The notes: generated from the letters alone by a model not told the origin. A stretch of DNA of 58,483 bases from Anaerolineae bacterium (GCA_034430655.1 DAOUEC010000120.1:1-58483); one strand, 5' to 3'. Numbered from the stretch's first letter, positions 39,585-58,483 are shown. Numbers and translations: made by a program.

Positions 39585-39590
39585 AGTCAG

Positions 39591-39732
39591 TCAATAGGCA
39601 ACAAGCCCGCTCTCAAGCGGGTCCCTCTTACTCTCCACTGTAATCTCGTCGCCGTGCAGGCGGATCAGTTCCCGCGCGATGGCCAGTCCAGACCCACCTC
39701 CTGCTGCTCCATCTGCTTCCGACTGATCCGCC
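39591..39732 (-). pseudogene. Relic of a histidine-kinase C-terminus (HATPase_c G2 box onward)
   Basis: My translation gives ADQSEADGAAGGGSGLAIARELIRLHGDEITVESKRDPLESGLVAY*. There is no upstream kinase body; the fragment begins right after the stop of the 1425-aa gene. Confidence 0.6.
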
Positions 39733-39733
39733 C

Positions 39734-42700
39734 TTACGTACTAGCTTCTTCCCTGATCGCATTGAGGACGACAGGCTTGCCCTCCAACCCGAAGGACGCC
39801 TGATCGCCCACCGGCTCATAGCGATAGAACACCACGCCAGTGACCGGCCGTTCTTCGCGAAAGTAGCCAAGGGCCTCGTGCACCCACTCGGCGTTATCTG
39901 ACAGCCAACCAGTTGCACCTCGATTCGCCTCCAGACATTGAGGATTCAGTTCAGTAACGAAGACTGGCACTGAGCGGAATCTGTCTGGCACAACCGCTAA
40001 GACTGTCTCCACTGTCTTCAAATGCAGGTACTGCCAGGTCAAGGGGTTGTCCGTGAACCGGTCTCTTGACCGCACCTCGGCCGAGTCGTTGGTCTGCGTC
40101 TTAGCATGGAGGAACAACACGTCGGCGCCGGCGAGGTTGTCCAAGATATGCATCCACCAGTCTCGGTTATTTGAACTAGGACCGAAGTACGGGTCTATCG
40201 GCGGCGGTCCAATCTTGGCCCGACCGGCCACTCTCTGCCATATCTCGTTATAGATCTCGGTGACATAATCCGCCGTCAGCGCGAACTCGTCGTCAGTTCC
40301 GAACCCAGGCCACTCTTGACGATTGTTCGGCTCATTGCCAATGTGGAAATATTCTACTCCCCGGGCCGCTAATATGGTCTGCGCTACAGCATTGACAAAG
40401 AAGTCCTTGTTTTCTGGCCGCGGCAATGTCCCTGTGCCATCGGCGTAGCCCCAATTGAGACGGCAGATGACTGTGATCCCCGCATCTCGAAGACATCTGC
40501 AGTCAATTTGGACCGGTTGGCGTTGCACCATCCGATGCACTAAGCAACATCCCTCCATTCGCTGATTGGCCATCCATTCCCCTCCCCTCCTATCGTGTAG
40601 ACCGAGCAGTATCTTGCGCAGTGGGGATGGGGGGCCTTGAGGCTTGATGTGCGCTGCCCTGATCCCCACGTACTGGGCGGCGGCCTTTTCGTACCGTTTT
40701 CCATCCCACGTGTCAATGATGTGCAAGTTGTCTCCCTTAACGTCCTCCAGGTAGACGAAATGGCCCCCGTCCGCCCGCCTGAGGATGATCTCCCACCCAT
40801 TTCTGAGCAACCTCCCTAACTCACGAGCGGAGCGTTGCTTGTTGTCCTTGATGCTGTCGTCGAAGGCCGGGAACAAAGGGACCGCGCTGCCCCACACCAT
40901 AATGTTGTCGCTGACATAAGCCGCGCGGGCAGCTACCAGGAGCTTGTCGAGCAGCGGCGGCGTGACGTCTCGCTGGTAAACCTTGCGTAGCATGATGGCC
41001 AACCCGGTCAGGAAGCACCCGTAATGTCCGATGGTTTCTCCGTTTGCGTCGGGGTCCTCGCCAAAGTCGTAGTCCGCCCACTGTGGATCGGTTTGCCCTA
41101 AGGCGATGTCCTCACCCAGTATAGGCCGGAGCCTTGTCGCCATCTCCCAGGGACTCTCCGTTTCGATCGTCCTGTACTCAGCATTGGGGTAGTGTTCGTC
41201 ATACCACGCCTTCAGATCCTCGCCCCACTCCTTGGGATTGACAGCGATGATCTCCCGGTCTTGCGGTCCGACGCCAGCATCGTCGGCTGAGTGTCCAATC
41301 GTCTGCATCTCTTCAGAAGATCCGATGGCGGCGGCGATACGCCAATCAAGGCGCTCAATGGTGTCTTCGATCTGTGGCAAGAGTACATAGGTGCGCCTAT
41401 AGGGCTTTCTTGGTGGCACGCAGTCCGGCACAGCATCACTGCTCAGTGACTTGATTGATCCAGACGGAGGCCTCCGCTCCCTGACACGTGCCGCCCTTAT
41501 GCCCTTATACTCGGCGGCGGCTTTTTCTTTCCGTTCTCCGTCCCACGTGTCAATGATGTGCAAGACGTCTCCCTTGACTTCCTCCAGGTAGACGAAATGG
41601 CCTCCATCCGTCCGCCTGAGGATGATCTCCCACCCATCGCTCAGCAACCCCTCCAACTGACGAGCAGAGCGCTGCTCGTTGTCTTTGATGCTGTCATCGA
41701 AGGCCGGGAACAAAGGGAGCACGCTACCCCACACCATAATGTTGTCGCTGACATAAGCCGCGCGGGCAGCCACCAGGAGCTTGTCGAGCAGCGGCGGCGT
41801 GACGTCTCGCTGGTAAACCTTGCGTAGCATGATGGCCAACCCGGTCAGGAAACACCCATAACGTCCAATGCTTTCCTCGTCGGCGGGCTTGTCAGGATGC
41901 TCACCGAAGTCGTAGTCTGCCCATCGTGGATCGGTTTGCCCTAAGGCGATGTCCTCACCCAGTATAGGCAAGAGCCTTGTCGCCATCTCCCAGGGACTCT
42001 CCGTTTCGATCGTCCTGTACTCAGCATTGGGGTAGTGTTCGTCATACCACGCCTTCAGATCCTCACCCCACTCCTTGGGATTGACAGCGACGATCTCCCG
42101 GTCTTGCGGTCCGACGCCAGCATCGTCGGCTGAGTGTCCAATCGTCCGCATCTCTTCAGAAGATCCGATGGCGGCGGCGACACGCCAATCAAGGCGCTCA
42201 ATGGTGTCTTCGATCTGTGGCAAGAGTACATAGGTGCGCCTATAGGGCTCTCTTGGTGGCACGCAGTCCAACACCTTGGAACCGCCGCCGGTGTACTCAG
42301 AGTACTCGAATGATTCTGCGGGGTTGCCCCTTGCATATTGGATCAGCCTCTCCGCAACCGCTGTCCCGGCGACATCGAAGTCCTTCCAAGTTCCACCCCA
42401 GTTGCCCCAGGTGAAAAGCGTCATACCAACCACATAGTCGTCCTTGCGCAGCTCATTGTCGTACCAGACCAACTGCCGGAAGTAGTAGTCGGCCTTGTCA
42501 GGTTCATTGTCGTGCTCCTTCCAGTACTCGCCCAAGCCCTTCCAGGTTGCGGCCGGCGCTCCGGGAGGTTTCGGGTTCACCAGCGGGTCAATACCACACT
42601 CGGTGATGACCAACGGTACCTGTAGCTCGTTGGGTAGCAAGTACTGGCGGTAGACCTTGCGGTAGCGCAGCGTTGTCCAGCCCTCATCGCCCTGATCCTC

Positions 42701-44011
42701 ATCTGGGTCTAACTGATAATCCCCCGTCATCCACCACATCCAGGGGCAACTATACTCATGTAGACCTAGGATGGCCTCATATTCAAGACCTACCTCGATC
42801 GCTGGCAGGAATGCAGGCCACAGGTCAAAGGGCGGCGTGCCCGTAGCGAAGTTCCCGATGACACACTTGAGCCCTAGCTCGCTCATCAGCTTCATCCGCT
42901 CGATCTCGAATTGCGCGTACCAGCCCATCTCCTCTGGCGTGTTCCAGACCGGCTCGTTGTGGCCCTCCCAATATTCGACGAGCGGGTTGGCCTGATACAT
43001 CTCCAGCATATCATTGACGAACTGCCTCGCTGCTTCGAGCGGCGTCTTGCCGCTGTTCCTATGGAGCCGGGCGTCGTAGGCCCCCGCCCTCGCCCCGATC
43101 ACCAGGACGCCTTCGGGGACATCCTTTGCCATGCCCCAATCGCCAACGAACTTGACGACGGCTGGCCTGGCCTGGATGAACTCCATCAGATGAGAAGCCG
43201 CCCGGAGGACGTGGGCTCCCACCTTTGTGTGGCGTTCGGTCGGTGCCGGGGGTGGAGAGGGAGGCGGTGGCGGAGATGGGGGAGGAAAAGGCGACGGCGA
43301 AGTCACCTCAACCAACTCTGCGGTATCCCAATAGGCATCGTTATGCTTGAACGGCCACATCGCCTTGCTGCGGAGAAATAGCGTCACTGTCTCAGCCTGG
43401 GCCGTCGCTTCCACGGCTGGAACTTCCCGATACCCATTATAGATATGCGCTACTGGGCCCCATTCCACCGTGCCAGCGTACGGATCGGTGCCGCCAGTAG
43501 GGTCTATACCGAGCATAAAGGAGAAATTCCCAATGGCATCATTCCAGGAATCTCCACTGAGCGGTGGGACATCCTCTTCCAGCAGGAACGCTGCACCTCG
43601 TCCCACGCCACACGAGCAGCGAGGGTCGTCCGCGCAGTCTTCATATCCCTCAAGGCGATGGTTGCTCCAGGCATGCGCCCAGGCTGTCAAGCGGAGGTGG
43701 ATGCCTGGTTCAACCTGTACCTGTTGCAGAAATCCCGCATCGTGCTTGCGGTGAAACGTGAACAGCAATATTCCCTTCTCACCGCTCTGGACCCGTTCCG
43801 GATCCCTGCTCTTCCACGCATCTCGCACCTCGGGTTGATCCCACGTGCCTGGTTCGTGACGGAACCAGGTCAACCAGTTGGGTGGCGTGAAGATGTTGCC
43901 CACATCTCTCTCTTGCGGATTTCCATCCGCGGGGAAAACCAGGCAACGATGACTTTTCTCCTCTAACCAATCGGCCTCGAACCCGCTATTCTTCAGCAAG
44001 TTCTTCGACAT
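39734..44011 (-). CDS. 1425-aa multi-domain wall-hydrolase-like protein: CBM-like jelly roll, Pro-rich linker, clan-A GH-like TIM barrel, two copies of (alpha/beta module plus C39-like Cys peptidase), second clan-A GH-like barrel
   Basis: N-terminal NSGFEADW (CBM4/9-like). PPPSPPPPPSPPPAP linker. GHNEPVW and VITECGID; IGNEPNN and FVTELN (acid/nucleophile-like Glu motifs). GQTDPRWADYDFG...YGCFLTGLAIML...GGHFVYLE..HIIDTWDG occurs twice. No signal peptide is evident. Confidence 0.7.
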   Translation of the reverse strand: MSKNLLKNSGFEADWLEEKSHRCLVFPADGNPQERDVGNIFTPPNWLTWFRHEPGTWDQPEVRDAWKSRDPERVQSGEKGILLFTFHRKHDAGFLQQVQVEPGIHLRLTAWAHAWSNHRLEGYEDCADDPRCSCGVGRGAAFLLEEDVPPLSGDSWNDAIGNFSFMLGIDPTGGTDPYAGTVEWGPVAHIYNGYREVPAVEATAQAETVTLFLRSKAMWPFKHNDAYWDTAELVEVTSPSPFPPPSPPPPPSPPPAPTERHTKVGAHVLRAASHLMEFIQARPAVVKFVGDWGMAKDVPEGVLVIGARAGAYDARLHRNSGKTPLEAARQFVNDMLEMYQANPLVEYWEGHNEPVWNTPEEMGWYAQFEIERMKLMSELGLKCVIGNFATGTPPFDLWPAFLPAIEVGLEYEAILGLHEYSCPWMWWMTGDYQLDPDEDQGDEGWTTLRYRKVYRQYLLPNELQVPLVITECGIDPLVNPKPPGAPAATWKGLGEYWKEHDNEPDKADYYFRQLVWYDNELRKDDYVVGMTLFTWGNWGGTWKDFDVAGTAVAERLIQYARGNPAESFEYSEYTGGGSKVLDCVPPREPYRRTYVLLPQIEDTIERLDWRVAAAIGSSEEMRTIGHSADDAGVGPQDREIVAVNPKEWGEDLKAWYDEHYPNAEYRTIETESPWEMATRLLPILGEDIALGQTDPRWADYDFGEHPDKPADEESIGRYGCFLTGLAIMLRKVYQRDVTPPLLDKLLVAARAAYVSDNIMVWGSVLPLFPAFDDSIKDNEQRSARQLEGLLSDGWEIILRRTDGGHFVYLEEVKGDVLHIIDTWDGERKEKAAAEYKGIRAARVRERRPPSGSIKSLSSDAVPDCVPPRKPYRRTYVLLPQIEDTIERLDWRIAAAIGSSEEMQTIGHSADDAGVGPQDREIIAVNPKEWGEDLKAWYDEHYPNAEYRTIETESPWEMATRLRPILGEDIALGQTDPQWADYDFGEDPDANGETIGHYGCFLTGLAIMLRKVYQRDVTPPLLDKLLVAARAAYVSDNIMVWGSAVPLFPAFDDSIKDNKQRSARELGRLLRNGWEIILRRADGGHFVYLEDVKGDNLHIIDTWDGKRYEKAAAQYVGIRAAHIKPQGPPSPLRKILLGLHDRRGGEWMANQRMEGCCLVHRMVQRQPVQIDCRCLRDAGITVICRLNWGYADGTGTLPRPENKDFFVNAVAQTILAARGVEYFHIGNEPNNRQEWPGFGTDDEFALTADYVTEIYNEIWQRVAGRAKIGPPPIDPYFGPSSNNRDWWMHILDNLAGADVLFLHAKTQTNDSAEVRSRDRFTDNPLTWQYLHLKTVETVLAVVPDRFRSVPVFVTELNPQCLEANRGATGWLSDNAEWVHEALGYFREERPVTGVVFYRYEPVGDQASFGLEGKPVVLNAIREEAST
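40652..42268 (-). repeat. Intragenic tandem duplication (period 843 nt; units 41489-42268 and 40652-41425)
   Basis: The DCVPPR(E/K)PYRRTYVLLPQIEDTIERLDW ... GIRAA units are nearly identical in protein and DNA. The off-frame ORFs 41212..41439 and 42055..42336 are near-identical, with their ends exactly 843 nt apart. One 6-nt indel (PDKPADEES versus PDANGET). Confidence 0.85.
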
Positions 44012-44033
44012 TTGACAACTCCTGGTGATAGTC

Positions 44034-44288
44034 CTACTTGGATGAGGTGAGCTTGATTATCTCCCCTGTTTGATCCATAGTGACGCGCACCGCTCGCATC
44101 AGGCATCCCCCGTCCTGTAACGAGATGCTTTTTTGGAAAGTCAAGACGTAGAGGGTCCCGATGCCTTCCCCGCCTTTGCTGTGAGCCTTTTTCGAGGACA
44201 CAGTCGGCTCGGTGCCAGCCATCTCGGGGAACTTTTCGTGCACGATTTCTTTCGCCTTAGAGACATATTGGGGGTCTAGCTCAGGCAA
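44034..44288 (-). CDS. Small hypothetical protein translationally coupled to ftsZ
   Basis: 84 aa from TTG 44288. A GGAGGAG RBS lies 7 nt upstream, inside the ftsZ 3-prime end, and the gene overlaps ftsZ by 8 nt. Alternative start ATG 44222. No family recognised. Confidence 0.45.
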
Positions 44289-45357
44289 CTCTCAACTCCT
44301 CCAATTCAACTCGCCTATGAGACCGCATAAAAGCAGGCACGGCCAAGTCTTCCCCAAATATCTCTGCCGAAGAAAGGCGCTCTGCCTGTGGCGGGACGGT
44401 CGTCGTCCGCTCCACTCCCACCCCTGTGGCTATCAAAGTGATCCGGGCCCGGCCCTCCATTTTCGGATCGATGACACTGCCGAGAAGGATCTGGGCTTGA
44501 GGCATGGCTGCCTGAGATATGATCTCCATGGCCTGGCTGACCTCTGCCAGAGTGAGGTCGGCTCCTCCCGTGATATTGACCAGGATGTTTTCCATCCTAC
44601 TGGCGGATTCTATGTTGAGAAGTGGATTTCTAAGAGCTGTCCTAGCTGCCTCGATAGCCTTCTCCTCCCCTTCTCCGTGGCCAATTGATATGAGGGCCCC
44701 GCCTGCCCCATTCATAATGGATCTAACGTCTGCAAAGTCAAGATTGATTAAACCAGGCCGTGTGACCAGCTCGGAGATTCCTTGAACTCCCTGGCGAAGC
44801 ACTTCGTCGGCGATGCGGAAAGCGACATCGAGTGAAACCCGCTTATTGACAATTTCGAGCAAGCGATCATTGGGCACGATGATCAGCGTGTCTACTTCTT
44901 CTTTGAGGCGCGTAATCCCCTCTTCAGCAATAGCCAATCGCTTAGTCCCTTCAAAGGAGAAAGGCTTCGTGACCACAGCGATGGTCAGAGCCTTCTCCGC
45001 CCGGGCAATCTGGGCCACAATGGGGGCTGCGCCCGTGCCTGTGCCACCACCCATCCCTGCAGCGATGAATACCATATCAGCCCCGCGCAGGGCTTTGCTA
45101 AGCTGCTCTCGACTTTCGCGGGCGGCTTTAGCTCCCATGGCTGGGTTCCCGCCAGCCCCTAAAGACCTGGTGAGCTTCGCTCCCAGCTGGATCTTGCAAG
45201 GCGCTTCGGAGCGGGCAAGCGCCTGGGTATCACTGTTGGCGGCGATGAAATCAACGCCAGGGATGCCTATTTGAATCATCCGATCGACAGCATTGCTGCC
45301 GGCTCCACCGAGGCCAACCACCTTTATCGTCGCTCCTTTCCAGACCTGTGATTCCAT
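44281..45357 (-). CDS. ftsZ: Cell division GTPase FtsZ (canonical)
   Basis: 358 aa. Contains [17 protein letters not shown], the tubulin signature [22 protein letters not shown] and the conserved C-terminal peptide DLAVPAFMR. Confidence 0.9.
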
Positions 45358-45449
45358 GCTGAAACCTCCCGTCTTAAGAACTGCACGAAGATCGTTGCGT
45401 TCCCAAGGCTCCTTCGTTTCCCCTATCGTAACTACTCACCACGTTCAAG

Positions 45450-45884
45450 TCAAACCCCCAGATGGCTCAGTCTTTCTACTACGATCACTCCCTCTTCAAC
45501 CATCTCAGCCCTAACCTCCTGCCAACGTTGGGGGCTCCATACCTCCAAATGGGTGCACAGGCCAACAACGATGGCCTCATTCTCGATGCCTGCATATTGC
45601 CGCAGATTGTTGGGCAAGGGGATTCGGCCTTGTTGATCTGGGACGCAGCTCAGAGCTCCCGAGAACATGAGGCGGGCGAAAGCCCGAGCATCCCGGCTAG
45701 TGAGAGGCAGGCGACATTGCATTTCCTTTGCAAGCTTTCGCCACTCTTCAGCAGGGTAGATGAACAGGCATCTGTCAATTCCCCGCGTCAAAGTCGATCC
45801 CTCACCGAGTTCAGCACAAAACTCGACGGGAATAGTCAATCTTCCGCTACTATCGGCCACACAACGAAACTCACCTAATAACAT
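45450..45884 (-). CDS. mraZ: Transcriptional regulator MraZ
   Basis: 144 aa. Two SpoVT/AbrB-like halves (DSSGRLTIPVEF and DQQGRIPLPNNLRQYAGI), LFIYPAEEW and LEVWSPQRW. Confidence 0.85.
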   Translation of the reverse strand: MLLGEFRCVADSSGRLTIPVEFCAELGEGSTLTRGIDRCLFIYPAEEWRKLAKEMQCRLPLTSRDARAFARLMFSGALSCVPDQQGRIPLPNNLRQYAGIENEAIVVGLCTHLEVWSPQRWQEVRAEMVEEGVIVVERLSHLGV

Positions 45885-45900
45885 CGTTTCTCGGTCCCAG

Positions 45901-45948
45901 CAGGTAGGCTTGTGAGTAGTTGCCAGGTTTCCTTCATGGGCCTACCTG
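45901..45948 (-). other. Stem-loop in the protease/mraZ spacer
   Basis: A 9-bp perfect inverted repeat, CAGGTAGGC (45901-45909) and GCCTACCTG (45940-45948), with a 30-nt loop. One arm covers the protease stop codon. A weak promoter-like TTGATG-16-TAAGAT (minus strand, 45958-45985) lies just upstream. Confidence 0.35.
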
Positions 45949-47681
45949 GACACAGCCATCTTAAGAATATGGCCTTTTTCATCAACAGTTACCTTGACCA
46001 CTTGACAATGCGCGCCATCACCTCTGACAGGAATATCTTTTTCCAAGGTAAAGGCCCAATTTCCCGAGTATCCCTTAGAAACTTCAACAGCTCCGCAGGC
46101 AAGGGCACATCGGTGGCCACAGTTTCCGTTGCAGAACCTCAGCGGGACTGCGCGCACCCGTGCTTGAGCCATATGCGGCAAGCTGGTCTCCATGCGGCCC
46201 TTGACCAATCTTACCAATTCGTCAGGGACGGGTCCCTTCTGGAGGTTGGCCATTTTCTGGCAGATGATAGGAGGACAGAAAGTTTTACCCGAAACCCCCA
46301 TATCTGATCTACCCTGGAGAGCCATGACTGGGAGGGATGGGTCTCCATAGAGCACAAAACTGATGAGCGTTTTTTGATCTTCACCATCCAAGTAGCCCTG
46401 TCGGTCTTGCATTTCTCTGGCCAGATTTGCCTTGGCATACTGTAGGGCCTCACCTACGGCCAGGTGAGCCTGCAACCCTTCCCAGAAGTACCTGCCAATT
46501 AGATCGGCTCCTAGCAGAGGGGGAGCGATGGCGCCGTAGGAGATCTTGGTCGAACCGACCAGGGCCAACGCTTGGGAGGCCAGGAATTGCAAAGCTATGG
46601 AGTTGCCGGTATGCTTTCCCACGATGTTGGCCCCGTAGCAGGCCTCGGTGAAAACTACCGAGTTGGCGTGTTCATCTACGGTCAAGTCCTGGGGGCGCAG
46701 GGCCACGGGGAAGAGGGGATAATTCGCAGGGAACAAGGAATCTCGCTGGCCGTACCAGTTGGCTCCATCCTCGCTGCCATGGAGATTGAAGTAGCTGAAA
46801 TGCGGACGCTCTGCAATCTTGAACTCTTCATAAGTGAGAGGAGGGGAGATTCTCAGTTGGCGATCGTCGCCGATAACCTGAAACACAGCCCGGGCGGCCT
46901 TTCTCCAAATGCTGGCTGAATATCCCAAGCCGTGTCCATTCCGTTGGTCTCGACTGGCTGGCCAGAACGTTCCGAAGATGGTGCTGAATAACCCTCTAGC
47001 CACGCCTGGCTCTAGATGCCCGGCTACAGCTGTTTGGATGAGGGAGTGTAAGAAACCTATCCCTTCTCCTTCTCCGTCAGGCATTCTCCCTACCGCCCTT
47101 TCCGGGACGAGATAGTTGGCGTCACGCGATGCGTAAGGATTGTCTGAGAGAACATCCGTATCCTGATCGTCAATGGGGTTAGGTAGGCGGTGAAAAGGGA
47201 TGATGGGGTCTCCACCGACGATCAGAATGTACCGGATCTCTTGGCCTTGCTCGTTTAGGCGGGCATCCAGGTTATCTATCAGCATCTTGATCTGCCCAGG
47301 ATTGGTCGGATCCACAGGTTGTAGGCTGTATGGGAGCAGAGAAGGCCTGTCATCTACATAGATGATTATGACCTCCAAGTCAGTTTGGCCTTCAATTGCT
47401 TGCTTGAGATTGCGCAAGTCCTTATCCAGTTGATTGAAGCCAAGTTGTCCATATTTTCTCGTCAAACCATCCTTGTTGGAAATGATCAGATACAGGGGAG
47501 CAGCGTCCCTGACCTCAGCCTCAGGTCGTTGTGTGCTTCCCACTGAGAGCGATTCGATCAGACGATTCAGCTCGGCTTGGGCCTCGTCCACTGCCTTTGC
47601 TGCCTGACTCGCAGTACTTGCTGGCCACCGTCCGCTGCCAGAGACCGAGGAAGGCCAAGGGGACTCGTTGAATTCTGCCAT
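45942..47681 (-). CDS. Clan-CD cysteine protease-like protein (caspase/gingipain C25-type His-Cys dyad) with Cys-rich C-terminal region
   Basis: 579 aa. PHFSYFNLHGSEDG (hydrophobic strand plus HG) and NSVVFTEACYGANI (hydrophobic strand plus AC). ILIVGGDPIIPFHRLPNP...SDNPYA resembles Peptidase_C25. GGGAGG RBS. Confidence 0.65.
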   Translation of the reverse strand: MAEFNESPWPSSVSGSGRWPASTASQAAKAVDEAQAELNRLIESLSVGSTQRPEAEVRDAAPLYLIISNKDGLTRKYGQLGFNQLDKDLRNLKQAIEGQTDLEVIIIYVDDRPSLLPYSLQPVDPTNPGQIKMLIDNLDARLNEQGQEIRYILIVGGDPIIPFHRLPNPIDDQDTDVLSDNPYASRDANYLVPERAVGRMPDGEGEGIGFLHSLIQTAVAGHLEPGVARGLFSTIFGTFWPASRDQRNGHGLGYSASIWRKAARAVFQVIGDDRQLRISPPLTYEEFKIAERPHFSYFNLHGSEDGANWYGQRDSLFPANYPLFPVALRPQDLTVDEHANSVVFTEACYGANIVGKHTGNSIALQFLASQALALVGSTKISYGAIAPPLLGADLIGRYFWEGLQAHLAVGEALQYAKANLAREMQDRQGYLDGEDQKTLISFVLYGDPSLPVMALQGRSDMGVSGKTFCPPIICQKMANLQKGPVPDELVRLVKGRMETSLPHMAQARVRAVPLRFCNGNCGHRCALACGAVEVSKGYSGNWAFTLEKDIPVRGDGAHCQVVKVTVDEKGHILKMAVSR

Positions 47682-47702
47682 TTGCCTGGTGAACCTCCCA
47701 CA

Positions 47703-50700
47703 CTAGATTTTCCGCCGTTGCCAGAGAAAGGACACGGCACTTACTGCTGCCCATTGCTTGTAGGCATTGGCATCATTGGGGCGTAGTTCGATAGCCTTGC
47801 GGAACATCGTCACAGCCTCAGGATACCGTTGCAGTTGCTTGTACATTGCGCCAGCGTTGCAATAGTAATCCGCTGTGTGCGAATCCCGCTTGGTGGCTTC
47901 GAGATAGGCATCCAAGGCCACATCATACTGATCCTGCAATTCGTAGGACTTGCCCAGTTCACAGTAAGCCATGGCATTATCGGGCTGGAGCTTGATCATT
48001 TGCCTGAAGTGGGCTATAGCCTTGTCTAAATGCCCGAGTTGCCGCCACAGCCTGCCTATTTGACCATGCTGGGCTGCCTCGTGGGGCGCTACCGTGATAG
48101 CCTGTTCATAGGCCTGCAGGGCTTCATCGTAGCGCTGCTGGGCCTCATATACGTCACCCAGTTGCCCGTAAGCCTCGGTCATTTGGGGTTGTAATTCGAC
48201 TGCCTTCTCCAGATGCTCGGTGGCCTCCTGATACCGAGCCATCCGCTTGTCAATCACCCCCATCTTGTAGTGATAGAAAGCGTTATTCGGATCCAGGACC
48301 AAGGCTCGCTGGTAGGTCGCCAGAGCTTCGGCCCACCGTTTTTCCCTTTCATAGAGGTCGCCCAGGCGTTCATAGGCTGGGGTATGATCACTCTTCAACG
48401 CGATAGCCTCTTTAAACCTCGCCAGGGCCTCATCAACGTCGCCTAACTCAACGGCCACACTGCCCAGGTTGAGCAAGTAAGCGGGCTCCTCGGGAGCAAG
48501 ATCGATAGCACGCTGATAAATCTCTCGTGCCCTACGATGCTGGCCTTGCCGGACGTAGGCATCGCCCAGCTCTGAATACCATCGGGGATTGTCCACTCGT
48601 AATTGGACAACCTTCTCCAAGAGATCGGCAGCCTGTTTATCGTTCCCCATCTTGGCGTAGGCTGAAGCTGCATTATGCAGATATTCAGGCTCCTCGGGCG
48701 CCAATTCTGCAGCACGCAGATACTGTTCCAGGGCCAAGTGAGGCCGCCCCTGTTCTGCATATATGTCGCCCAAGGTGTTGTGCCATGGGACGACGCCCGA
48801 TTTCAGCCCTACAGCCTGCCCCAAGACGACGCTGGCTTCCTGATTCTGCCCTGCCTCATGCAGCATCAGCCCGAGCACATAGTGATACAACGCTTTTGTA
48901 GGATCCAATTGCCTAGCCTTCTCCAGAGCAGCCATGGCTTTCTCTGCTTGCCCTGCTTGCCTATGACTTAGGGCCAATTCATATTGAGTCTCTGCACAAT
49001 CTGGCTCCAAACTCTCCGCCTTACGCAGCTCCCGGATGCTATCCCGATGTTTCCCCATCAATCGGTAGGCTATCCCCAACGCGCGGTGATGAGAGGCTTC
49101 GTAGGGAGCGGCTTCTATGGCCCTCTCAAGTTGCGCGATGGCTTCTGCATGTTGCCCACTTAAGGCGAGGAGTTCCCCTAGCTCTGCATGGGCCTCGGGC
49201 GACTCCTCTCCCAAGGCCATAGCGCTCCGTATGGCAGCGATGGCTCCATCATAATCCTCCGCCAAGGGGGCCTGCTCGGAGATGCCAGCCTGCCTCAGGG
49301 TCCAAGCCTGCTGTCCGATCTTTCGCCAGATAGTGCCCAACCGCAATTGATAGCGCACCTCATCGGGGCTTAACTCGGCGGCTTCTTTGTATTCGGAACA
49401 TGCTTCCCCGTAATGCCCCTGAGCCTCAAGTGTGGCCGCCAATTGCCAGTGGGCTTCTGCATCTGATGGATCCAAGGCCAGGGCTTTGGCCAGGACGTCT
49501 GCGGCCTCGACGTACCGCTCTAGCCTACACAAGACTGCTCCGCAGGCCCGTCGGTAAAGCGATTCGTCCGGCTTCAGGTCGGCCGCCTGGCGATACTCGG
49601 CCAGAGCGTCCTCCCAGTGCCCCTGGGCCTCGAAGATGGTGCCCAGCGTATAGTGAGCCTCAACATCGGTCGGGTTCAAGGAGATGACCTTTCTCAAGAA
49701 TTGTATCGCCTTGTCATCCTCACCTAATTCGTGGTACAGCAAGCCCATGTCGCGACAATGGATAGCCTCCTCCGGCTCCAAGGAGATCGCTTCCTGGAAC
49801 GCTGCCAGGGCATCGTCGTGAAGCCCCAGTTGCTCGCAGGCCTTTCCCAGCAGGTGCTGAGCCTCCGCATCACCTGGCTCCAAAGCCGTCGCTTCTCGCA
49901 GGACACGGGCAGCCTGCTCATATTGGCCCACATGATACAGCATCAGACCAACCTGACGATGATAAACTGCTTGATTGGGGGCCAAAGACGACGCCTGCCC
50001 GTACTCGGTGAGGGCTTCCTCATAGCGTCCCTGTTCCTCGAATATGACGCCCAGTTGATAGTGAGTCTGGGGCTCCTCTGCATCCAAGGCGATGGCCTTC
50101 GTCAGGACGCGGACCGCTCGATCTCCTTGGCCCAGTTCGTGCAGGGCTTCAGCAAGATGCCGGTGGTAGAGAGACCGATCAGGCGCTAGACTAGCCGCTT
50201 CCTCGTATTCGGTCACGGCCTTGGGATGCCGATCCAATTCGTGATAGGTACGGCCTAGTTCGTAGTGCGTTTGGGCATCGTCGGGCTTCAGGGTCAATGC
50301 CTTCCTGAGAACCTCTATCGCCCGGTCATATTCCCCTAGGTGGCGCAATGTGGCCCCTATGTCGCGATGGTAAGCAACCTCGTGAGGGGCCAGGTCGGCC
50401 GCGCGCTGATACTGGCTGAGGGCTTCTGTCAGCCAACCCTTATCGGCGAACGCCCTGGCTAATTCGCCATGTAAAACCGGGTCGCTGGGATCTAAACTGA
50501 TCGCCTCCTCCAAGGCAGCGATGGCCTCGCCCATCTTCCCCATCTGTCTGAATACCAGACCAATCGCGCACTTGTAGGCAGCCTCTTCTGAGGCCAGCCT
50601 GGCAGCCTCTTCATAATGCTCCAAAGCCTCGGTCAAATTGCCTCGTTGCTGATACGATTGACCCAAGTGATAGTGGGCCTCGGCCCAATTCGGCTGTAGC

Positions 50701-53700
50701 GCCAGAGCGCACTGCAGGCCAACGATTGCCTCCTCGTGATTGTCCAATCGTTGACAGGCTCTACCGTAGTCATAGAAAGGGGTTGGACTCTGAGGTGAAA
50801 GCTCCATAGCCCGTCGGAAAGCAGCCACTGCTTCTTGGTCTTGGCCTTGCACTTCAAAGATTGCTCCCAGTTGGTGGTAGGCCATAGCACATTCTTCGTC
50901 CAGCCGGATGGCACTCTTCAGCTCGTCCATGGCTTCACTGTGCTGTCCTGATCGTCGCAGGAGCACTCCCTTGTTAAGATGATACAGAGGTTCCGAGGCG
51001 TTCAATGTTGTGGCCTGACCATACTCCCGCAGGGCTTTCTCGTATTCCTCGTAGTGCTCATAGATATTGCCGACCGCATTGTGCAGGGCCGCATCCTCAG
51101 GGGCTATCTCTAAACCGGCCTTTAGTTCGGCCAGGGCCTCATCGTGTAGCCCCTTCCGCTGGTAGATGGAAGCCGTCCTCCGTCTGTACTCCACCTCTTG
51201 GGGGGCCAATTCGATGGCTTGCCGGTATTGGGCCAGGGCCTCCTCGTGTTTCTCCCCGGCCTCGGCTATCTTTCCCAACTGGGCCCGGATAGCAGCATCG
51301 GCAGGGCTCAGTTCCGAGGCTCGCAATGTCTCGGCTTTGGCCTCATTAAGCCGTCCCAGGCGATATGCGGCCAGGCCGAGTACGGCGTGAAAGGTAGGCT
51401 CTTGAGGATTGAGGCTCACAGCTTGTCGGTAAGCGCCCAGAGCTTTTTCTTGTTTGCCCTGCTGGGCGTATGCCAAGCCCAAATGGTAATGCACCATCGG
51501 GTTGTGAGGATGAAGGCTGCGCGTTGCTTCCAATAAAGCCAAAGCATCCTCGTGGCGACCTAGCCGTCGGCAAATTATGCCTGCTCGGAGCCCATATTTC
51601 ACTACCTTTGGTTCCAATTGAACAGCCTTTCCATAGGCGGTCAAGGCATCCTCATAAGCGCCCAGCTTCTCGTAGATCCTGCCCTGTTGGCCATACGCAT
51701 CTCCGTAGTCAGGCTTCAGTTGGATGGCATGTTGTAGCGTCTCCAGGGCACGATCGTGGTCGCTTAGGCGACCATACGTCGCGCCCAAATTATGATAGTA
51801 GAGAGCCTGGTCGGGCTCCAGGGCACACGCCAGGAGATACTCGTCAAGGGCCTCCTTCATTCGCCCTTGAACCTCATAAATCATCCCCTTCTGGTTATGG
51901 GCTTCTGCGTGGCTAGGGACCAAGGCAATAGCCTCCTCTAGCTCCGCTAAGGCTTCACCATATTCCCCCAAATGATAGAGCGAACATCCTGCGCCGTAGT
52001 GATAATCGGCCCTGTGGGAATCGAGGGCTAACGCTGTTCGGTATCCGCTCAGCGCCTCGACGTGTTCCCCTTGCCAACTTAGAGCTTTGGCCAAGTCACC
52101 CTGCCACTCAGCTTGATTGGGCGAAAGCTCCACCGCGCGGCGCAGGCATCGGATGGTCTCTCCATGCCGTCCTATGCGCTGGTTGGCTAAGCCGAGATGA
52201 TGGTAATAGGCTACGTTGGTCGGCTCAAGCGCCACAGCCTCCTCGTACTCCTGGCAGGCCTCTTTCCAGCGCTCTGCGGCCTCGTAAAGTGTCCCCAACT
52301 CGTCGTGCCAAGGGACTTGGTCGGGTTGCAGAGTTAAGGCGTGCTTTAGATAGGCGATAGATTGCTCATATTGACCTTGCCTGGCTAAGACGACACTGGC
52401 TTCTTGATACAACGAGCCGTTTCTGGGGGCCAGTTTGATGGCCTGTTCGAGCACACCCAAAGCCTCACTATACCAGCGCTGTTGCTGGTAGGAATAGCCG
52501 ATCTCCCGATATATGTCTGCTTGCTCCGGGTTCTGGGCCTGCGCTTGTTTCAGTTTTTCCAATGCCTCCTTGTAGCGTCCCAACTGGTTGAGAGTGACCC
52601 CAGCCTGGTAGAGGTATGCCCCTGCTTTAGGTTGCCGGCTCAAAGCCTGATGAAAAGCCTCAAGGGCATCTTCATAATTACCTTGCCTCTGGAGGGCTAG
52701 ACCCAGCTCACAGTATATCTCAGCACAAAGCCGGTCAGCCTCATGAAGGGCGCTTTGCAACTCGGCTACGGCTTCGCTGCCGCGCTCCAGTTCCCGATGG
52801 ATGACGCCCAAGTTGTAGCGGTGGATGACTTTGCCGGGCTGCCAACCTTCTGCGGAAAGGGCAGTGCTTGGCATCAGATGCCGATAGATAGGCGGCAATA
52901 GAGCATCTGGGGATTTAACGGTCAATGCGTTCAGGGCTATGGTGGCCCCCTCGATCGCCCCCAATTCCTTTAAGGCTATGCCCAATTGATAGACGGTGGT
53001 CTTGGGAAGGTACATCTTCATTAGCCGCCTTACTTGTTCCCACAACCCTTGCTGATCCTCGTTGCTGATCAGACATCGTGCGGCTAAGCGGACCACTTCG
53101 TATCCAGCCTGGGTATCTAGCAGCCTTCGGATCAGACCCAGACGGTCGGATTCCAAGCCATAGAGTTGAAGGAGAGGCCCCTGCCATCTCTCTCGCACGC
53201 TCTGGTCCTGAACGAGTTGGCCTACGTCCAGGTCATCCTTCAACCTTTGCCTGAGCGTCAGAGCGGCAAAGAAGTCTTGCACTAGAGCGTGAAGAAAACT
53301 CACCCGCTTGCCATCCTCCGTCAAGACCAGCAGGCCGCTGCGGAGGGCATCGTCGATCCGCTGGCCGGCTTCGGCCATTATCTCAATGCAACCTCGCCGC
53401 CCTATGTTGTCAGTTCGTGCTTGTTGGAGGGCGAAAGCCAATTCAGCCAACCCGCGGCCCTCGCTCTCCAGCCATTGCTCGACCTGGCCTGTCTCTGCCG
53501 TACCCAAGGCGATCCGTATGCCTTCTTTGATGGCGCGGCTACGGCTCCACCAGGGGCCTTTCCCACCAGAGGGCGCGGCTAAGTTGAGGATCGCTCTAAG
53601 GAAAAGAGGAATGCGCGCCAGGTCCCACAGGGCGCCATCTTTTCTCAGCCCGAGGTTCAGTTCTGCCGATCTTTTTTCGGATGCATATTCCCGCAGGAAT

Positions 53701-54353
53701 TGTCCCATCGAACCGTCGTTCAGCGCGAGGATGTTCAAGGCTGGAATATGACCTAGCCAGGATCGATGTGCAGGCAGGCTTTGGGTGCGGCAAGCAATGA
53801 CCATCCTGGCTGAAGGACATTCCTGGGTGCAAGATGCCAGCCAAGATCTCAACTCCTCCAAGAGGCGGCTATCCGCAACCCTGTCCAGGTTGTCCAGCAG
53901 GAAAAGGGGCGTTTGCTGGTTTAGGATAGATCGCAAGCTCGCATCGCTGGCTGCTGGCTGATGGCACCGAAAGGCCTCCAACAGCAAGTCCCTCACCCCT
54001 TTGTTGTCTTGCAACAGGGATAGATCGACAAGGAAAGGGATCGGGGCTTCCCGTCCTGGCGAAAGGGCTTCCTCGGCACCCTTGTGGGCCAGGCGCTGCA
54101 GCAAGGTGGTCTTGCCTGCCCCCAAATGCCCGTGGAACACCACCCTGTCCAGACCTTTCACTGCTTCCAGGGCATCTTTCTCGTCCTCGCCCGGCTCCGT
54201 CCTTACCTTGAGGGCCACGTAATGCCTGCTGACTTCGGCCAAATGGGGATCATCTCGCATATCTTGCAGGTATTGATACAAAAGCGGCTGATCAAGGGAG
54301 TGGGGAAGACCCGCCGAACTACCCCTGTTTTCTTGCGCCCTATGATCGAACAT
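47703..54353 (-). CDS. STAND NTPase (NACHT-type) fused to about 50 TPR repeats (2216 aa)
   Basis: The ORF track starts at GTG 54368; ATG 54353 follows AGGAGAGGG. Walker A VVFHGHLGAGKTTLL, Walker B PLFLLDNLDRV, MVIACRT. From about residue 520 to the C-terminus there is an almost uninterrupted 34-aa TPR periodicity (..A..Y..A..L.P..A.....LG......G.Y.EA..). Confidence 0.8.
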   Translation of the reverse strand: MFDHRAQENRGSSAGLPHSLDQPLLYQYLQDMRDDPHLAEVSRHYVALKVRTEPGEDEKDALEAVKGLDRVVFHGHLGAGKTTLLQRLAHKGAEEALSPGREAPIPFLVDLSLLQDNKGVRDLLLEAFRCHQPAASDASLRSILNQQTPLFLLDNLDRVADSRLLEELRSWLASCTQECPSARMVIACRTQSLPAHRSWLGHIPALNILALNDGSMGQFLREYASEKRSAELNLGLRKDGALWDLARIPLFLRAILNLAAPSGGKGPWWSRSRAIKEGIRIALGTAETGQVEQWLESEGRGLAELAFALQQARTDNIGRRGCIEIMAEAGQRIDDALRSGLLVLTEDGKRVSFLHALVQDFFAALTLRQRLKDDLDVGQLVQDQSVRERWQGPLLQLYGLESDRLGLIRRLLDTQAGYEVVRLAARCLISNEDQQGLWEQVRRLMKMYLPKTTVYQLGIALKELGAIEGATIALNALTVKSPDALLPPIYRHLMPSTALSAEGWQPGKVIHRYNLGVIHRELERGSEAVAELQSALHEADRLCAEIYCELGLALQRQGNYEDALEAFHQALSRQPKAGAYLYQAGVTLNQLGRYKEALEKLKQAQAQNPEQADIYREIGYSYQQQRWYSEALGVLEQAIKLAPRNGSLYQEASVVLARQGQYEQSIAYLKHALTLQPDQVPWHDELGTLYEAAERWKEACQEYEEAVALEPTNVAYYHHLGLANQRIGRHGETIRCLRRAVELSPNQAEWQGDLAKALSWQGEHVEALSGYRTALALDSHRADYHYGAGCSLYHLGEYGEALAELEEAIALVPSHAEAHNQKGMIYEVQGRMKEALDEYLLACALEPDQALYYHNLGATYGRLSDHDRALETLQHAIQLKPDYGDAYGQQGRIYEKLGAYEDALTAYGKAVQLEPKVVKYGLRAGIICRRLGRHEDALALLEATRSLHPHNPMVHYHLGLAYAQQGKQEKALGAYRQAVSLNPQEPTFHAVLGLAAYRLGRLNEAKAETLRASELSPADAAIRAQLGKIAEAGEKHEEALAQYRQAIELAPQEVEYRRRTASIYQRKGLHDEALAELKAGLEIAPEDAALHNAVGNIYEHYEEYEKALREYGQATTLNASEPLYHLNKGVLLRRSGQHSEAMDELKSAIRLDEECAMAYHQLGAIFEVQGQDQEAVAAFRRAMELSPQSPTPFYDYGRACQRLDNHEEAIVGLQCALALQPNWAEAHYHLGQSYQQRGNLTEALEHYEEAARLASEEAAYKCAIGLVFRQMGKMGEAIAALEEAISLDPSDPVLHGELARAFADKGWLTEALSQYQRAADLAPHEVAYHRDIGATLRHLGEYDRAIEVLRKALTLKPDDAQTHYELGRTYHELDRHPKAVTEYEEAASLAPDRSLYHRHLAEALHELGQGDRAVRVLTKAIALDAEEPQTHYQLGVIFEEQGRYEEALTEYGQASSLAPNQAVYHRQVGLMLYHVGQYEQAARVLREATALEPGDAEAQHLLGKACEQLGLHDDALAAFQEAISLEPEEAIHCRDMGLLYHELGEDDKAIQFLRKVISLNPTDVEAHYTLGTIFEAQGHWEDALAEYRQAADLKPDESLYRRACGAVLCRLERYVEAADVLAKALALDPSDAEAHWQLAATLEAQGHYGEACSEYKEAAELSPDEVRYQLRLGTIWRKIGQQAWTLRQAGISEQAPLAEDYDGAIAAIRSAMALGEESPEAHAELGELLALSGQHAEAIAQLERAIEAAPYEASHHRALGIAYRLMGKHRDSIRELRKAESLEPDCAETQYELALSHRQAGQAEKAMAALEKARQLDPTKALYHYVLGLMLHEAGQNQEASVVLGQAVGLKSGVVPWHNTLGDIYAEQGRPHLALEQYLRAAELAPEEPEYLHNAASAYAKMGNDKQAADLLEKVVQLRVDNPRWYSELGDAYVRQGQHRRAREIYQRAIDLAPEEPAYLLNLGSVAVELGDVDEALARFKEAIALKSDHTPAYERLGDLYEREKRWAEALATYQRALVLDPNNAFYHYKMGVIDKRMARYQEATEHLEKAVELQPQMTEAYGQLGDVYEAQQRYDEALQAYEQAITVAPHEAAQHGQIGRLWRQLGHLDKAIAHFRQMIKLQPDNAMAYCELGKSYELQDQYDVALDAYLEATKRDSHTADYYCNAGAMYKQLQRYPEAVTMFRKAIELRPNDANAYKQWAAVSAVSFLWQRRKI

Positions 54354-54364
54354 TGTCCCTCTCC

Positions 54365-54688
54365 TCACAGCCCAGGAAGGATCCAGAAGGCCACCAAGCA
54401 GAGCATTACCCCAACCAGGCAGAGAAATACCCCAACGCCAACGGACGTGCGGATTAGTTGATCTACGGCCTTGACTAGCCCAGATAAAGCCTCTATTAGA
54501 GGTGCCAGCCCGGCATCAGTGACGGCCTTGCTGCTGACCTTCGCCGACTGGGCCGAAATGCTCTTTAGCACTTGTTGATACTGCCTGGACAAAATAGTCC
54601 AGAGCCCTGCTATGCACGAGCATAAGCCTAGTAAGAACAAACATCCTGACATCGCAATTTGGAGATTCGTGATCATCATGCTTTCCAT
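54365..54688 (-). CDS. Small membrane protein (two TM helices flanking an amphipathic segment)
   Basis: 107 aa. CLFLLGLCSCIAGLWTIL and VGVGVFLCLVGVMLCLVAFWILPGL. Separated by 7 nt from the kinase gene and 11 nt from the NACHT-TPR start. Confidence 0.5.
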   Translation of the reverse strand: MESMMITNLQIAMSGCLFLLGLCSCIAGLWTILSRQYQQVLKSISAQSAKVSSKAVTDAGLAPLIEALSGLVKAVDQLIRTSVGVGVFLCLVGVMLCLVAFWILPGL

Positions 54689-54695
54689 CCTTTCA

Positions 54696-57600: not shown

Positions 57601-58049
57601 TGGCGCAGAAGGAGTCCAATCAAGAAACCAAAGAAGGCGAGATGAAATGGCTCAGCGATACCGCAGATTGTCGTATCGGCACGCAAGATGCCGCTGACCA
57701 ATCCCACCAACAACGCTGGCCCGGCGCCGAGCCACGCGCCAGCAGCAAGAATCGGCAGAGCTCCCAGCAGTGGCACAAGCGGCTGAGGGGGTTTGACAGG
57801 AACATTTGGGGGAGGCAGAAGATTGGGCGCAGAAAAACTCAGCACCAGCAAGTGGTTGACGAGCAGCGGAGCTGCCAGCAAGCCTGCAAACAGGAGAAGA
57901 CGATGCCGGGTTAGTCTGGTGAAATCCCGGCGGAAGCAGATGAGGAGCACCAAGGCCAGCAGTGCATAGAACACCAGGAGGACATACTCCCAGGCCTCCA
58001 GTGCAGGGAAGACCAGCCACGACCACGGCTTCCAAATTACAGATTCCAT
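54696..58049 (-). CDS. Large sensor histidine kinase (multi-TM N-terminus, periplasmic Cache-like domain, HAMP, GAF, PAS, HisKA, HATPase_c)
   Basis: 1117 aa. HAMP RPLKQLAGAADRIAGGDLTQ, H-box EFLSTVSHDLRAPL, N-box VTNLVDNAIKYT, G boxes DTGIGV and GTGLGLAIVKSIVERHEG. No receiver domain or response regulator gene lies in the window. Confidence 0.85.
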   Translation of the reverse strand: MESVIWKPWSWLVFPALEAWEYVLLVFYALLALVLLICFRRDFTRLTRHRLLLFAGLLAAPLLVNHLLVLSFSAPNLLPPPNVPVKPPQPLVPLLGALPILAAGAWLGAGPALLVGLVSGILRADTTICGIAEPFHLAFFGFLIGLLLRQDYRGRLPLIARQPLVAAMVMTPFAMLLLLLSVFAHVAASGLSGFDYAVTLTKAYFGPAVVESLAAAIVVQTLYLFFPRLRPIRVARRSPPYIRSVNRRLLFLFVPLILIMTCVLVYAVTVTTLRMATLEVVNEMTQDAISAAEEIPYFIYTGQGLLTEFANDERLWHGDPLTLEARLRSDVQTMAFFDQLMLFDPDGQLLVMYPPAPTGDPELTAQEEMLLQRVLEHGATQISSAHRSHRGGPLLSFLAPVGPTGNGTRFKALLGRTHLDVNPMINRILTSLQWTGGQGEGFIVDSEGRIVSHSDSSMLLTEWRLDEDRPRIATVPRGQAYESLDPVRNTRQWIYYLPVEGCRWAVVIRLPYAVVLKQAQEVATPLLLLQLLFGSGLVVVMSVVIGFVTRPLKQLAGAADRIAGGDLTQPVQVSGEDEVGRVGDAFEDMRVRLKDRMEDISLLLAISQAVSATLELSRGVPFVLEGALRATRAQVARIVLLTAGGEPQMVMSRGEPSEGLEALDRSLAAAANDRQRPVIVENLARARTLADPETLNGPIKAVIALPVRTKDQTLAVIWIGCGEVRHFDDLEVDFLSMLAGQTAVVMENSRLFQAAEGGRRRLAAILDSTTDAVLVTDQQNRILLANPAAERAFDIAADAVLGQKMERAGLAPALVQALEVTSSPDEALTEEISLPSGRTLYVNVSTILGADGERIGRVAVMHDITYFKELDEMKSEFLSTVSHDLRAPLMFMRGYASMLLTVDSLSDEEREYVENILCGVEQINELVGDLLDLGRIEAGVGLERVPCHLRGVLIEAMDSMRAQAAVKEITLRMEPVESAVIVAGDAALLRRAVTNLVDNAIKYTPSGGVVTVGLSVRTDGEGDRAVIRVADTGIGVAPDDQMRLFEKFHRIRRRDTPDVSGTGLGLAIVKSIVERHEGKVWVDSELHEGSTFYISLPLSRDELPESEVLHFSGSRLT

Positions 58050-58110
58050 ACTGAGGTCCTTCCTTCAAGTAGCGTAAAGCCGCCACCTCTGTCCTTCATT
58101 GGCCTATTCC

Positions 58111-58147: not shown

Positions 58148-58483
58148 ACTCTGGATGTTGGCATCGAATTCAGTCCAAGAGACACTGTTAGTCAAGGGTT
58201 TGTCTTTATATGAATCCAGGTTCACTTTACTTGAGTTGCAAGAAACGTGCCAACATCGCGTTGGTTCGGGAGGAAGGGATGCATCCTCCTAAGAAAGTCA
58301 ACATAGAAAGTCAACGTTGGCCACGTGAAAGAACACCGAATCCATGCCTCATAACTTAAGGCCATTTTGGGTTTCCAAGGAGCGGTTTTCCTGCGATTCA
58401 GGGCAAATCTTGCCAGCCAGACCTGAATTTCAGACCAAATCGAGTGTCCAGATTCATCCCGGGCACGAAAACAGGCCGTTTCG

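Follow-up and report, generated by a model that had tools for sequence, protein, structure and literature searches.

Streptomyces carries a sporulation-specific ftsZ promoter and is an example of developmentally regulated ftsZ, and we know of no described case in which ftsZ is controlled by sigma-54, an NtrC-type activator and rpoN. Division control in filamentous Chloroflexota is almost unstudied, and the first live imaging of Chloroflexota division dates from 2025 (10.1101/2025.08.19.671072). In cyanobacteria, the clan-CD protease HetF is a divisome component of Anabaena sp. PCC 7120 and degrades PatU3 (PMC8406250, PMC9457339). Here we describe a cluster of eight genes that combines ftsZ with a clan-CD protease, a giant tetratricopeptide repeat (TPR) protein and a putative sigma-54 promoter. 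The cluster occupies positions 39734-58049 on the minus strand of a 58,483-nucleotide (nt) stretch of DNA from Anaerolineae bacterium (GCA_034430655.1, DAOUEC010000120.1:1-58483), which is referred to below, at its full length, as the window. No description of this cluster was found in the literature. In our reading, it is a module for division and septal remodelling that is specific to the lineage and controlled by a two-component system and sigma-54; we give this reading a probability of about one half.

The eight open reading frames (ORFs) are co-directional and were verified at the coordinates collected in Table 1. A first-pass annotation made from the sequence alone had placed all eight correctly, and the seven spacings that it gave are reproduced (7, 11, 21, 57, 92, -8 and 22 nt, the negative value being an overlap). 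Its domain calls also hold, namely a sensor histidine kinase, a protein with two transmembrane (TM) segments, NACHT followed by TPRs, a clan-CD protease, MraZ, FtsZ, an 84-amino-acid (aa) protein and a hydrolase combining a carbohydrate-binding module (CBM), glycoside hydrolase (GH) barrels and papain-like modules. The first-pass annotation did not mention the sigma-54 motif, the homology of the 84-aa protein to the protease C-terminus or the phage ancestry of the hydrolase. All domains of the cluster come from known superfamilies, and what is new lies at the level of families: the 84-aa, the two-TM and the inactive GH-like families.

Table 1. Features of the cluster and its upstream region (positions counted from the first nucleotide of the window; AF2, AlphaFold2).
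Feature	Position	Strand	Basis or remark
Putative sigma-54 (-24/-12) promoter motif TGGCACGTTTCTTGC(A)	58238..58252	-	~190 nt upstream of kinase start; predicted promoter
Direct repeat GTTGACTTTCT x2, 13 nt start to start	58292..58315	-	Read from sequence; 40-63 nt upstream of the -24 element
Sensor histidine kinase, 1117 aa	54696..58049	-	Pfam: multi-TM N-terminus, dCache_1, HAMP, GAF, PAS, HisKA, HATPase_c
Small two-TM protein, 104-107 aa	54365..54688	-	Hydropathy: two hydrophobic segments; no Pfam family
Giant NACHT-TPR protein, 2216/2221 aa	47703..54368	-	Pfam
Clan-CD (C25-like) cysteine protease, cytoplasmic, 579 aa	45942..47681	-	Pfam PF01364 Peptidase_C25, E 5e-13; AF2/Foldseek
MraZ, 144 aa	45450..45884	-	TIGR00242, 117.9 bits vs 98.35 cut-off; two PF02381 stretches
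FtsZ, 358 aa	44281..45357	-	TIGR00065, 409.1 bits vs 295.2 cut-off; PF00091 E 1.9e-49, PF12327 E 1.7e-25
84-aa protein	44034..44288	-	Start overlaps ftsZ stop by 8 nt; uncharacterised family
Leaderless multidomain hydrolase, 1425 aa	39734..44011	-	AF2 model, fold matches
Hydrolase CBM	43304-44011	-	CenC/CBM4/16/61-like beta-sandwich, target TM-score 0.6-0.8
Hydrolase first GH-A TIM barrel	42287-43234	-	Fold; best matches GH10, GH2, GH26
Hydrolase two [alpha/beta + papain-like] modules	41432-42271, 40622-41428	-	Fold and motifs
Hydrolase second GH-A barrel	39737-40621	-	NEP, TEC/TEL motifs

The arrangement is conserved across the class Anaerolineae. A scan of GTDB with one genome per species returned 135 relatives of the protease, of which 79 loci were fetched with 10-kb flanks and tabulated by tblastn; they are grouped below as clades A to D. 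The general order is (rpoN), kinase and NtrC-type regulator, a sigma-54 promoter, then the small TM protein, the TPR giant, the clan-CD protease, an inactive GH-like barrel or MraZ where present, FtsZ and the 84-aa protein. This order is kept down to about 38% protease identity, and the protease module alone is found down to 35%. Three contigs with divergent protease homologues (59%, 54% and 43% identity) share one gene order, with the small TM protein, the TPR giant, the protease, MraZ or another ORF, FtsZ and a 79-91-aa ORF. The TPR protein lies upstream of the protease in 76 of the 79 loci, the small TM protein was found in 65, and FtsZ follows in 48 of the 62 loci that have at least 4 kb of downstream flank; MraZ belongs to the cluster in 28 of 79, all of them in clades A and B. 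Four further loci located from the 84-aa family each hold the full cluster, with plsX-fabF downstream in three, and none of these four has the 84-aa gene and ftsZ apart from the protease. Chance juxtaposition, which the first-pass annotation had proposed to check by gene neighbourhood, is thus excluded by an arrangement conserved in 79 species.

Other parts of the neighbourhood differ between clades. The clade C ORF between protease and ftsZ matches the second GH barrel of the hydrolase distantly by profile comparison (83.7%, E 8e-6) and has lost both catalytic Glu residues; pairwise BLAST of the 476-aa ORF of this clade against the hydrolase was uninformative. In a close relative whose protease is 71% identical to that of the window (L017, 11712-13121), the protease is separated from ftsZ by both the inactive GH-like ORF and MraZ, so that absence of the GH-like ORF from the window probably reflects a loss and not an original lack. 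After the 84-aa gene, the clade C loci L048-L097 encode a single- or double-TM protein of ~60-70 aa that overlaps or abuts the 84-aa gene and, in 24 loci, a protein of ~247 aa with no Pfam family; neither is present in the window. In a few clade B genomes (L011, and L031 at 13720-15770), the place that the hydrolase has in the window, behind the small ORF that comes after ftsZ, is taken by a SARP/AfsR-like STAND regulator (Trans_reg_C, BTAD, AAA_16, MalT winged helix). Searches with Pfam, NCBIfam and PADLOC assigned the 84-aa and two-TM proteins, the 476-aa and 247-aa ORFs and the N-termini of the clade C/D giants to no family.

At the level of sequence, the two halves of the cluster, that of the protease and that of ftsZ, are linked most strongly by a shared domain. 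The profile of the 84-aa family aligns over its full length to the C-terminal domain of the protease (hhalign probability 97.6%, E 2.7e-12), and by this comparison the 84-aa protein is shown to be a free-standing copy of that domain. The family has 773 database relatives, all unnamed and none with a Pfam family, and in 49 fetched loci its gene follows ftsZ, which it usually overlaps or from which only a few bases separate it. In the AF2 model of the protease, built from 86 homologues (predicted local distance difference test score, pLDDT, 72; predicted TM-score, pTM, 0.77), the last ~100 residues (45945-46250) form a helix and a four-stranded sheet behind a Cys-rich linker. This linker (46080-46250, aa ~478-535), which lies between the catalytic and C-terminal domains, reads CPPIIC ... 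C-x3-C-x3-C with nearly invariant cysteines and may be a metal or redox site; it is missing from the free 84-aa protein.

The protease itself is intact. Its catalytic dyad consists of His301 in NLHG (46779-46781) and Cys348 in EACYG (46638-46640), and both residues are invariant in 86 database homologues and in all 77 complete ORFs from GTDB, so that the dyad predicted by the first-pass annotation is confirmed in 77/77 orthologues. Foldseek matches of the model include gingipain K (4rbm, E 1.1e-10) as well as the SAVED-CHAT and Craspase TPR-CHAT proteases (8tl0 and 7y84) and caspase-8. The Pfam CHAT model does not match the protease, PF01364 being the only family at E<=0.01, and the likeness to CHAT is one of fold only. 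The features by which true gingipains are secreted (signal peptide, propeptide, T9SS C-terminal domain) were looked for and not found: no signal peptide is seen by inspection, and the C-terminus is the domain shared with the 84-aa protein. The enzyme thus has a C25 fold without being a secreted enzyme of the gingipain type. The proteases of clades C and D (850-990 aa) carry N-terminal TPRs of their own, and the association of TPRs with the protease therefore also exists as a gene fusion. Direct sequence searches of the PDB with the protease, the hydrolase and the 84-aa profile gave nothing useful.

Regulation provides a further line of evidence. The consensus tested for sigma-54 was TGGCAC-N5-TTGCW, with GG at -24 and GC at -12, and TGGCACGTTTCTTGCA, at 58238-58252 plus one base, is an exact TGGCAC-N5-TTGC and the sole exact match to the consensus in the 58-kb window. 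In the relatives, 56 exact sites occur in 46 loci, 55 of the 56 on the strand of the cluster, and about 3 would be expected from base counts in the ~1.75 Mb searched. The clade B sites lie 65-84 nt upstream of the kinase. Those of clades C and D lie 39-176 nt upstream of the small TM gene, which is there the first gene after the promoter. In about 27 clade C loci, a site is also found 5-19 nt past the protease stop, directly before the 410-480-aa ORF; in many species, the stop of this ORF and the start of ftsZ have 4 nt in common. The two halves of the clade C cluster would thus be co-regulated even if they are separate units, since each carries a sigma-54 promoter. In clades A and B, the gaps on either side of mraZ (protease-mraZ and mraZ-ftsZ) were searched and hold no such motif. 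An NtrC-type AAA+ response regulator is encoded upstream in 46 related loci, and rpoN is adjacent in 22. The idea of a signal-controlled block, advanced by the first-pass annotation, is reasonable in that the kinase belongs to the block, and the conserved sigma-54 promoters strengthen it. Scans of the cluster for sigma-70 promoters and terminators gave background levels only.

Several observations touch on the regulator and its sites. Upstream of the kinase the window extends over 58050-58483, and contigs from other assemblies of the same strain (behind L001, L003 and L004) likewise break off ~420-430 nt upstream of its start. This suggests that the expected regulator gene is hidden by a repeat or by an element that varies between strains at this point. 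In clades C and D (L015, L045-L091; upstream 3.5 kb), the first sigma-54 promoter is immediately preceded by rpoN, a PAS kinase and an NtrC-type regulator of 388-391 aa that has no helix-turn-helix (HTH) domain. Because this HTH-less regulator adjoins rpoN, there is a hint that sigma-54 may mainly serve this cluster in these organisms, as a small dedicated regulon. In the window, the GTTGACTTTCT pair is a possible regulator site, and its membership in the cluster is tentative. In L011, L023, L026, L028-L031, L033 and L044, a palindrome resembling CCCCATATATGGGG stands ~170-200 nt upstream of the sigma-54 promoter, in intergenic DNA that is otherwise unconserved; the NtrC-type regulator of clades A and B, which does have an HTH, is a candidate for binding this palindrome as its enhancer site. 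No such palindrome is present in the 231 nt upstream of the window promoter.

It could be argued that the genes of the cluster are conserved neighbours without a common function. The sigma-54-controlled TM-TPR-protease module would then serve, for example, envelope or protein-quality control, and would adjoin a housekeeping ftsZ for historical reasons. Such a history would account for 13 loci, from at least three lineages (including Anaerolinea-labelled ones), in which the TM, TPR and protease genes are kept with no FtsZ within 10 kb and alaS or smpB follows the protease. It would also fit the clade-dependent genes between protease and ftsZ (MraZ or the GH-like ORF) and the variable gene downstream of the 84-aa ORF. 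It accords poorly, however, with the coupling of FtsZ to a protein that has the protease's own domain, with the sigma-54 promoter carried by each half of the clade C cluster, and with an adjacency that persists in 48 of 62 informative species despite protease divergence to ~38% identity. We regard it as rather unlikely.

The FtsZ of the cluster has a short linker and ends in the C-terminal peptide LAVPAFMR (44323-44346, within aa 336-349), of the type that binds partners such as FtsA, SepF and ZipA. Most orthologues retain the motif D-[LV]-P-[AT]-F-[LM]-R, but L013 and L035-L041 have replaced it. In these loci FtsZ ends in ...F-x-F-P-E-P-A-A...HVG and not in D-L-x-V-P-A-F-M-R, and the 84-aa gene still overlaps the stop; judged from sequence, the altered tail suggests a changed membrane-anchor partner. 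The genes rsmH/mraW, ftsA, ftsQ, ftsW/I and mur are found neither in the window nor in the annotated relatives, and mraZ is directly followed by ftsZ.

We judge this ftsZ likely to be the housekeeping copy, on the grounds of its equivalog score, its C-terminal peptide, which is retained, and its adjacency to mraZ. An alternative would be an accessory second ftsZ devoted to signal-induced division, as in filament fragmentation or the production of dispersal or resting cells, with the housekeeping ftsZ located elsewhere. Control by sigma-54 and an activator is typical of conditional programmes, the ftsZ of clade C lies in an operon headed by a sigma-54 promoter, the L035-L041 lineage has replaced the canonical peptide, and some lineages keep the protease module with no adjacent ftsZ. 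On the other hand, a second FtsZ that has the full C-terminal peptide is rarely encountered, and here the peptide is kept in most species, together with a score of 409 bits against an equivalog cut-off of 295. No second FtsZ-like gene occurs in any fetched locus, 10-kb flanks included, and the adjacency of mraZ recalls the reduced mraZ...ftsZ arrangement reported for Dehalococcoidia (PMC10608941). An accessory copy appears quite unlikely.

Kinase orthologues occupy the same position in clades A and B, with 49-68% identity. In the giant, a NACHT domain spans aa 75-231 (53676-54146; PF05729, E 1.6e-15), with the Walker A motif GHLGAGKT at 54108-54131. A TPR array follows from aa ~540 to ~2200 (47769-52751), with ~49 repeats by length, of which Pfam resolves 28-32, in line with the NACHT and roughly 50 TPRs of the first-pass annotation. 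Only 14 orthologous giants have a P-loop, and they come from the clade of the window itself and from subclade L035-L041. Clade B giants open directly with the TPR array and have no NACHT ahead of it, and those of clades C and D have an unrelated N-terminus without a family match. From this distribution in the orthologous sequences, NACHT is not a core element and is limited to one sub-branch. No repeats are seen at the DNA level in the TPR array, which therefore has diverged over a long time and is not a recent amplification.

Downstream of the 84-aa gene, the window encodes a large hydrolase, whose AF2 model covers aa 1-860 (pLDDT 87). Catalytic-type motifs are present throughout: NEP and TEC/TEL in both barrels, YGCF and GGHFVYL in both papain-like modules. 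In homologues, the papain-module Cys is conserved mainly in the second module. The region 40653-42190 holds a tandem duplication with a unit of 837-843 nt, in which identity is 95% between 41048-41347 and 41891-42190 and 88% between 40653-40952 and 41490-41789. This high identity suggests, at the sequence level, gene conversion between the two papain-like modules. Pfam gives no match for the window protein, and the C39 label given to it earlier is supported only indirectly, by one homologue that carries Peptidase_C39 (PF03412) and by conservation of the Cys/His pair. Other family members swap in Peptidase_M23, Amidase_2, VanY/M15 with PG_binding_1, or SH3_3, and the presence of M23, Amidase_2, VanY and PG_binding modules supports a wall-degrading role. 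One of the cluster-linked copies is an M23 variant, from which module swapping in place appears to occur. The lack of a signal peptide noted in the first-pass annotation is characteristic of the family, none of 30 sampled members having one.

The distribution of this hydrolase sets it apart from the rest of the cluster. Its papain-like module is found at the cluster in 14 of the 79 loci. Two homologues (P0176, P0179) lie on contigs of 70-110 kb with terminase and portal genes, and four IMG/VR contigs (L100-L103) encode relatives with 45-59% identity, one near terminase and portal genes and one directly after tape-measure and tail genes. A full-length copy with 54% identity occurs at an unrelated chromosomal site. 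No GenBank phage was matched by tblastn with the hydrolase (INPHARED). The hydrolase had first been taken as a member of the cluster; the phage-shared family and its presence in 14 of 79 loci indicate a clade-specific, phage-derived addition, not a core component.

These properties of the giant and the hydrolase bear on the function first proposed for the block, in which a NACHT-TPR sensor and a caspase-fold effector form a conflict, abortive-infection or death system that attacks FtsZ or MraZ and lyses the cell through the hydrolase. The window does encode NACHT and TPRs beside a clan-CD protease with an intact dyad, together with a leaderless phage-type wall hydrolase, and the protease fold resembles the SAVED-CHAT and Craspase TPR-CHAT defence proteases. 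However, NACHT is missing from most orthologous giants, the hydrolase accompanies few of the loci, and a canonical ftsZ lies inside the cluster. Moreover, the cluster is syntenic and flanked by housekeeping genes across a class rather than patchy, PADLOC returned nothing beyond generic TPR matches, and the TPR array has not diversified recently at the DNA level. The NLR-and-caspase framing of the first-pass annotation is accordingly not supported, and a death system seems to us very improbable.

The division and septal-remodelling module that we favour can be set out as a series of steps. The kinase would sense an external or metabolic cue through its dCache, GAF and PAS domains and phosphorylate the sigma-54 activator. 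The activator would then fire the promoter or promoters, which would lead to joint expression of FtsZ and the TPR-protease machine. The small TM protein and the TPR giant would hold the cytoplasmic protease at the membrane, the giant having presumably gained a NACHT switch in the sub-branch of the window. Through their shared domain, the protease and the 84-aa protein could bind the same partner, either FtsZ or each other, from which it would follow that the protease acts at the division ring or is gated by it. One may suppose, on the model of HetF and PatU3 in Anabaena, that the protease cleaves a regulator of division or wall remodelling. In the sub-branch of the window, a domesticated phage-type hydrolase would have been added downstream, plausibly for septum splitting or filament breakage.

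Several points weigh against this proposal. Every one of its protein-level steps is inferred from sequence. The count of sigma-54 motifs in the window is not significant when taken alone, the count with one mismatch being at chance level, and the gaps within the cluster (the 57-nt and 92-nt gaps and the others) hold no sigma-54 motif, the only site seen being the one upstream of the kinase. The window stops 434 nt upstream of the kinase start, and neither the activator gene nor rpoN is visible in it. The 13 loci in which FtsZ is absent within 10 kb indicate that the TM-TPR-protease module can exist apart from ftsZ. Finally, the hydrolase has no leader for export.

A bolder and less probable version may be entertained tentatively. 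The sole FtsZ of many Anaerolineae would be expressed from sigma-54 promoters served by a dedicated rpoN-kinase-activator set, and its ring would be governed by a separase-like TPR-protease machine that docks through the 84-aa-type domain, which would amount to a signal-gated proteolytic checkpoint on the time and place of septation or breakage in multicellular filaments. If the main reading is right, a class of bacteria abundant in sediment, sludge and the subsurface would have placed ftsZ under sigma-54 and two-component control and tied it to a caspase-fold protease by a shared small domain. This would be a second independent case, after cyanobacterial HetF, of clan-CD proteolysis linked to division in multicellular bacteria. 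It would also provide a functional hypothesis for three uncharacterised families (84-aa, two-TM and inactive GH-like) and an example of a phage tail lysin recruited beside ftsZ. Sigma-54 promoters before ftsZ, with rpoN as a neighbour, would, if confirmed, surprise division specialists.

The remaining genes of the window are ordinary metabolic and repair genes, with no further division genes among them. A RecQ-type helicase of 1075 aa (N-terminal TPR, C-terminal HRDC) beside a NERD-UvrD-type helicase of 606 aa forms an unusual pair at 26914-33150. The cluster had been described as lying in the lower-GC part of the window, to the right of a tRNA-fragment scar. The first of these statements is weak, the cluster having 56.9% GC vs 60.8% in the rest, with the minimum elsewhere, at 13000-16000 (50-51% vs ~61%). 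That segment, in which a URO-D-like gene is found with the genes next to it, lies just upstream of a phosphotransferase system gene (PTS EIIC, GAT family) and could have been acquired horizontally. The scar was not recovered: ARAGORN found no tRNA or tRNA fragment, and Rfam gave no RNA at gathering score in the whole window or at E<=1 in 33000-40500. A genomic-island origin of the cluster was considered and rejected, the GC contrast being small and the same block being found in fixed housekeeping contexts in relatives.

Comparison with described systems places the cluster between several of them. With the dcw cluster (for cell wall and division), including its reduced mraZ-mraW-ftsA-ftsZ form in Dehalococcoidia and Mollicutes (PMC10608941, PMC8475190), it shares a close and co-directional mraZ and ftsZ, which stand at opposite ends of the classical cluster. 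However, rsmH/mraW, ftsA, ftsQ, mur and ftsW/I are lacking here, mraZ is missing from the cluster in clades C and D, and the TPR giant, the protease and the 84-aa gene are not dcw genes. The window giant resembles Avs/AVAST and bNACHT proteins in having a NACHT NTPase followed by a long TPR array, but here NACHT is dispensable in orthologues, the chromosomal position is fixed, no effector is fused, and PADLOC sees generic TPRs only. As in TPR-CHAT (Csx29, Craspase) and separase, a TPR scaffold is associated with a clan-CD protease, to which it is fused in clades C and D, and the fold is similar to 7y84 and 8tl0. The present system differs in that it has no CRISPR or SAVED partner, in that its best fold and sequence match is to gingipain/C25, and in its separate TPR protein of ~1700-2300 aa. 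The comparison of the TPR giant and the protease with separase is one that we take to be an analogy only.

The hydrolase resembles phage tail lysins, endolysins and domesticated autolysins in being leaderless and modular (CBM, GH, peptidase) and in having phage relatives with 45-59% identity, but it is solitary, with no phage genes nearby, and keeps its place by ftsZ and the 84-aa ORF in 14 species. The sporulation-specific ftsZ promoter of Streptomyces is similar in that a conditional regulator governs a single division gene of a filamentous bacterium, whereas control here would come from a sigma-54 promoter together with an NtrC-type activator and a neighbouring rpoN. The HetF-PatU3 system differs from the present one in that HetF is a membrane-anchored CHAT protease, is cyanobacterial and is not encoded next to ftsZ. 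The protease described here is C25-like with no Pfam CHAT match, soluble, paired with a TPR giant, located beside ftsZ and preceded by sigma-54 motifs. What the two have in common is a caspase-fold protease tied to FtsZ-driven division in a filamentous multicellular bacterium, with proteolysis of a division regulator as the proposed logic.

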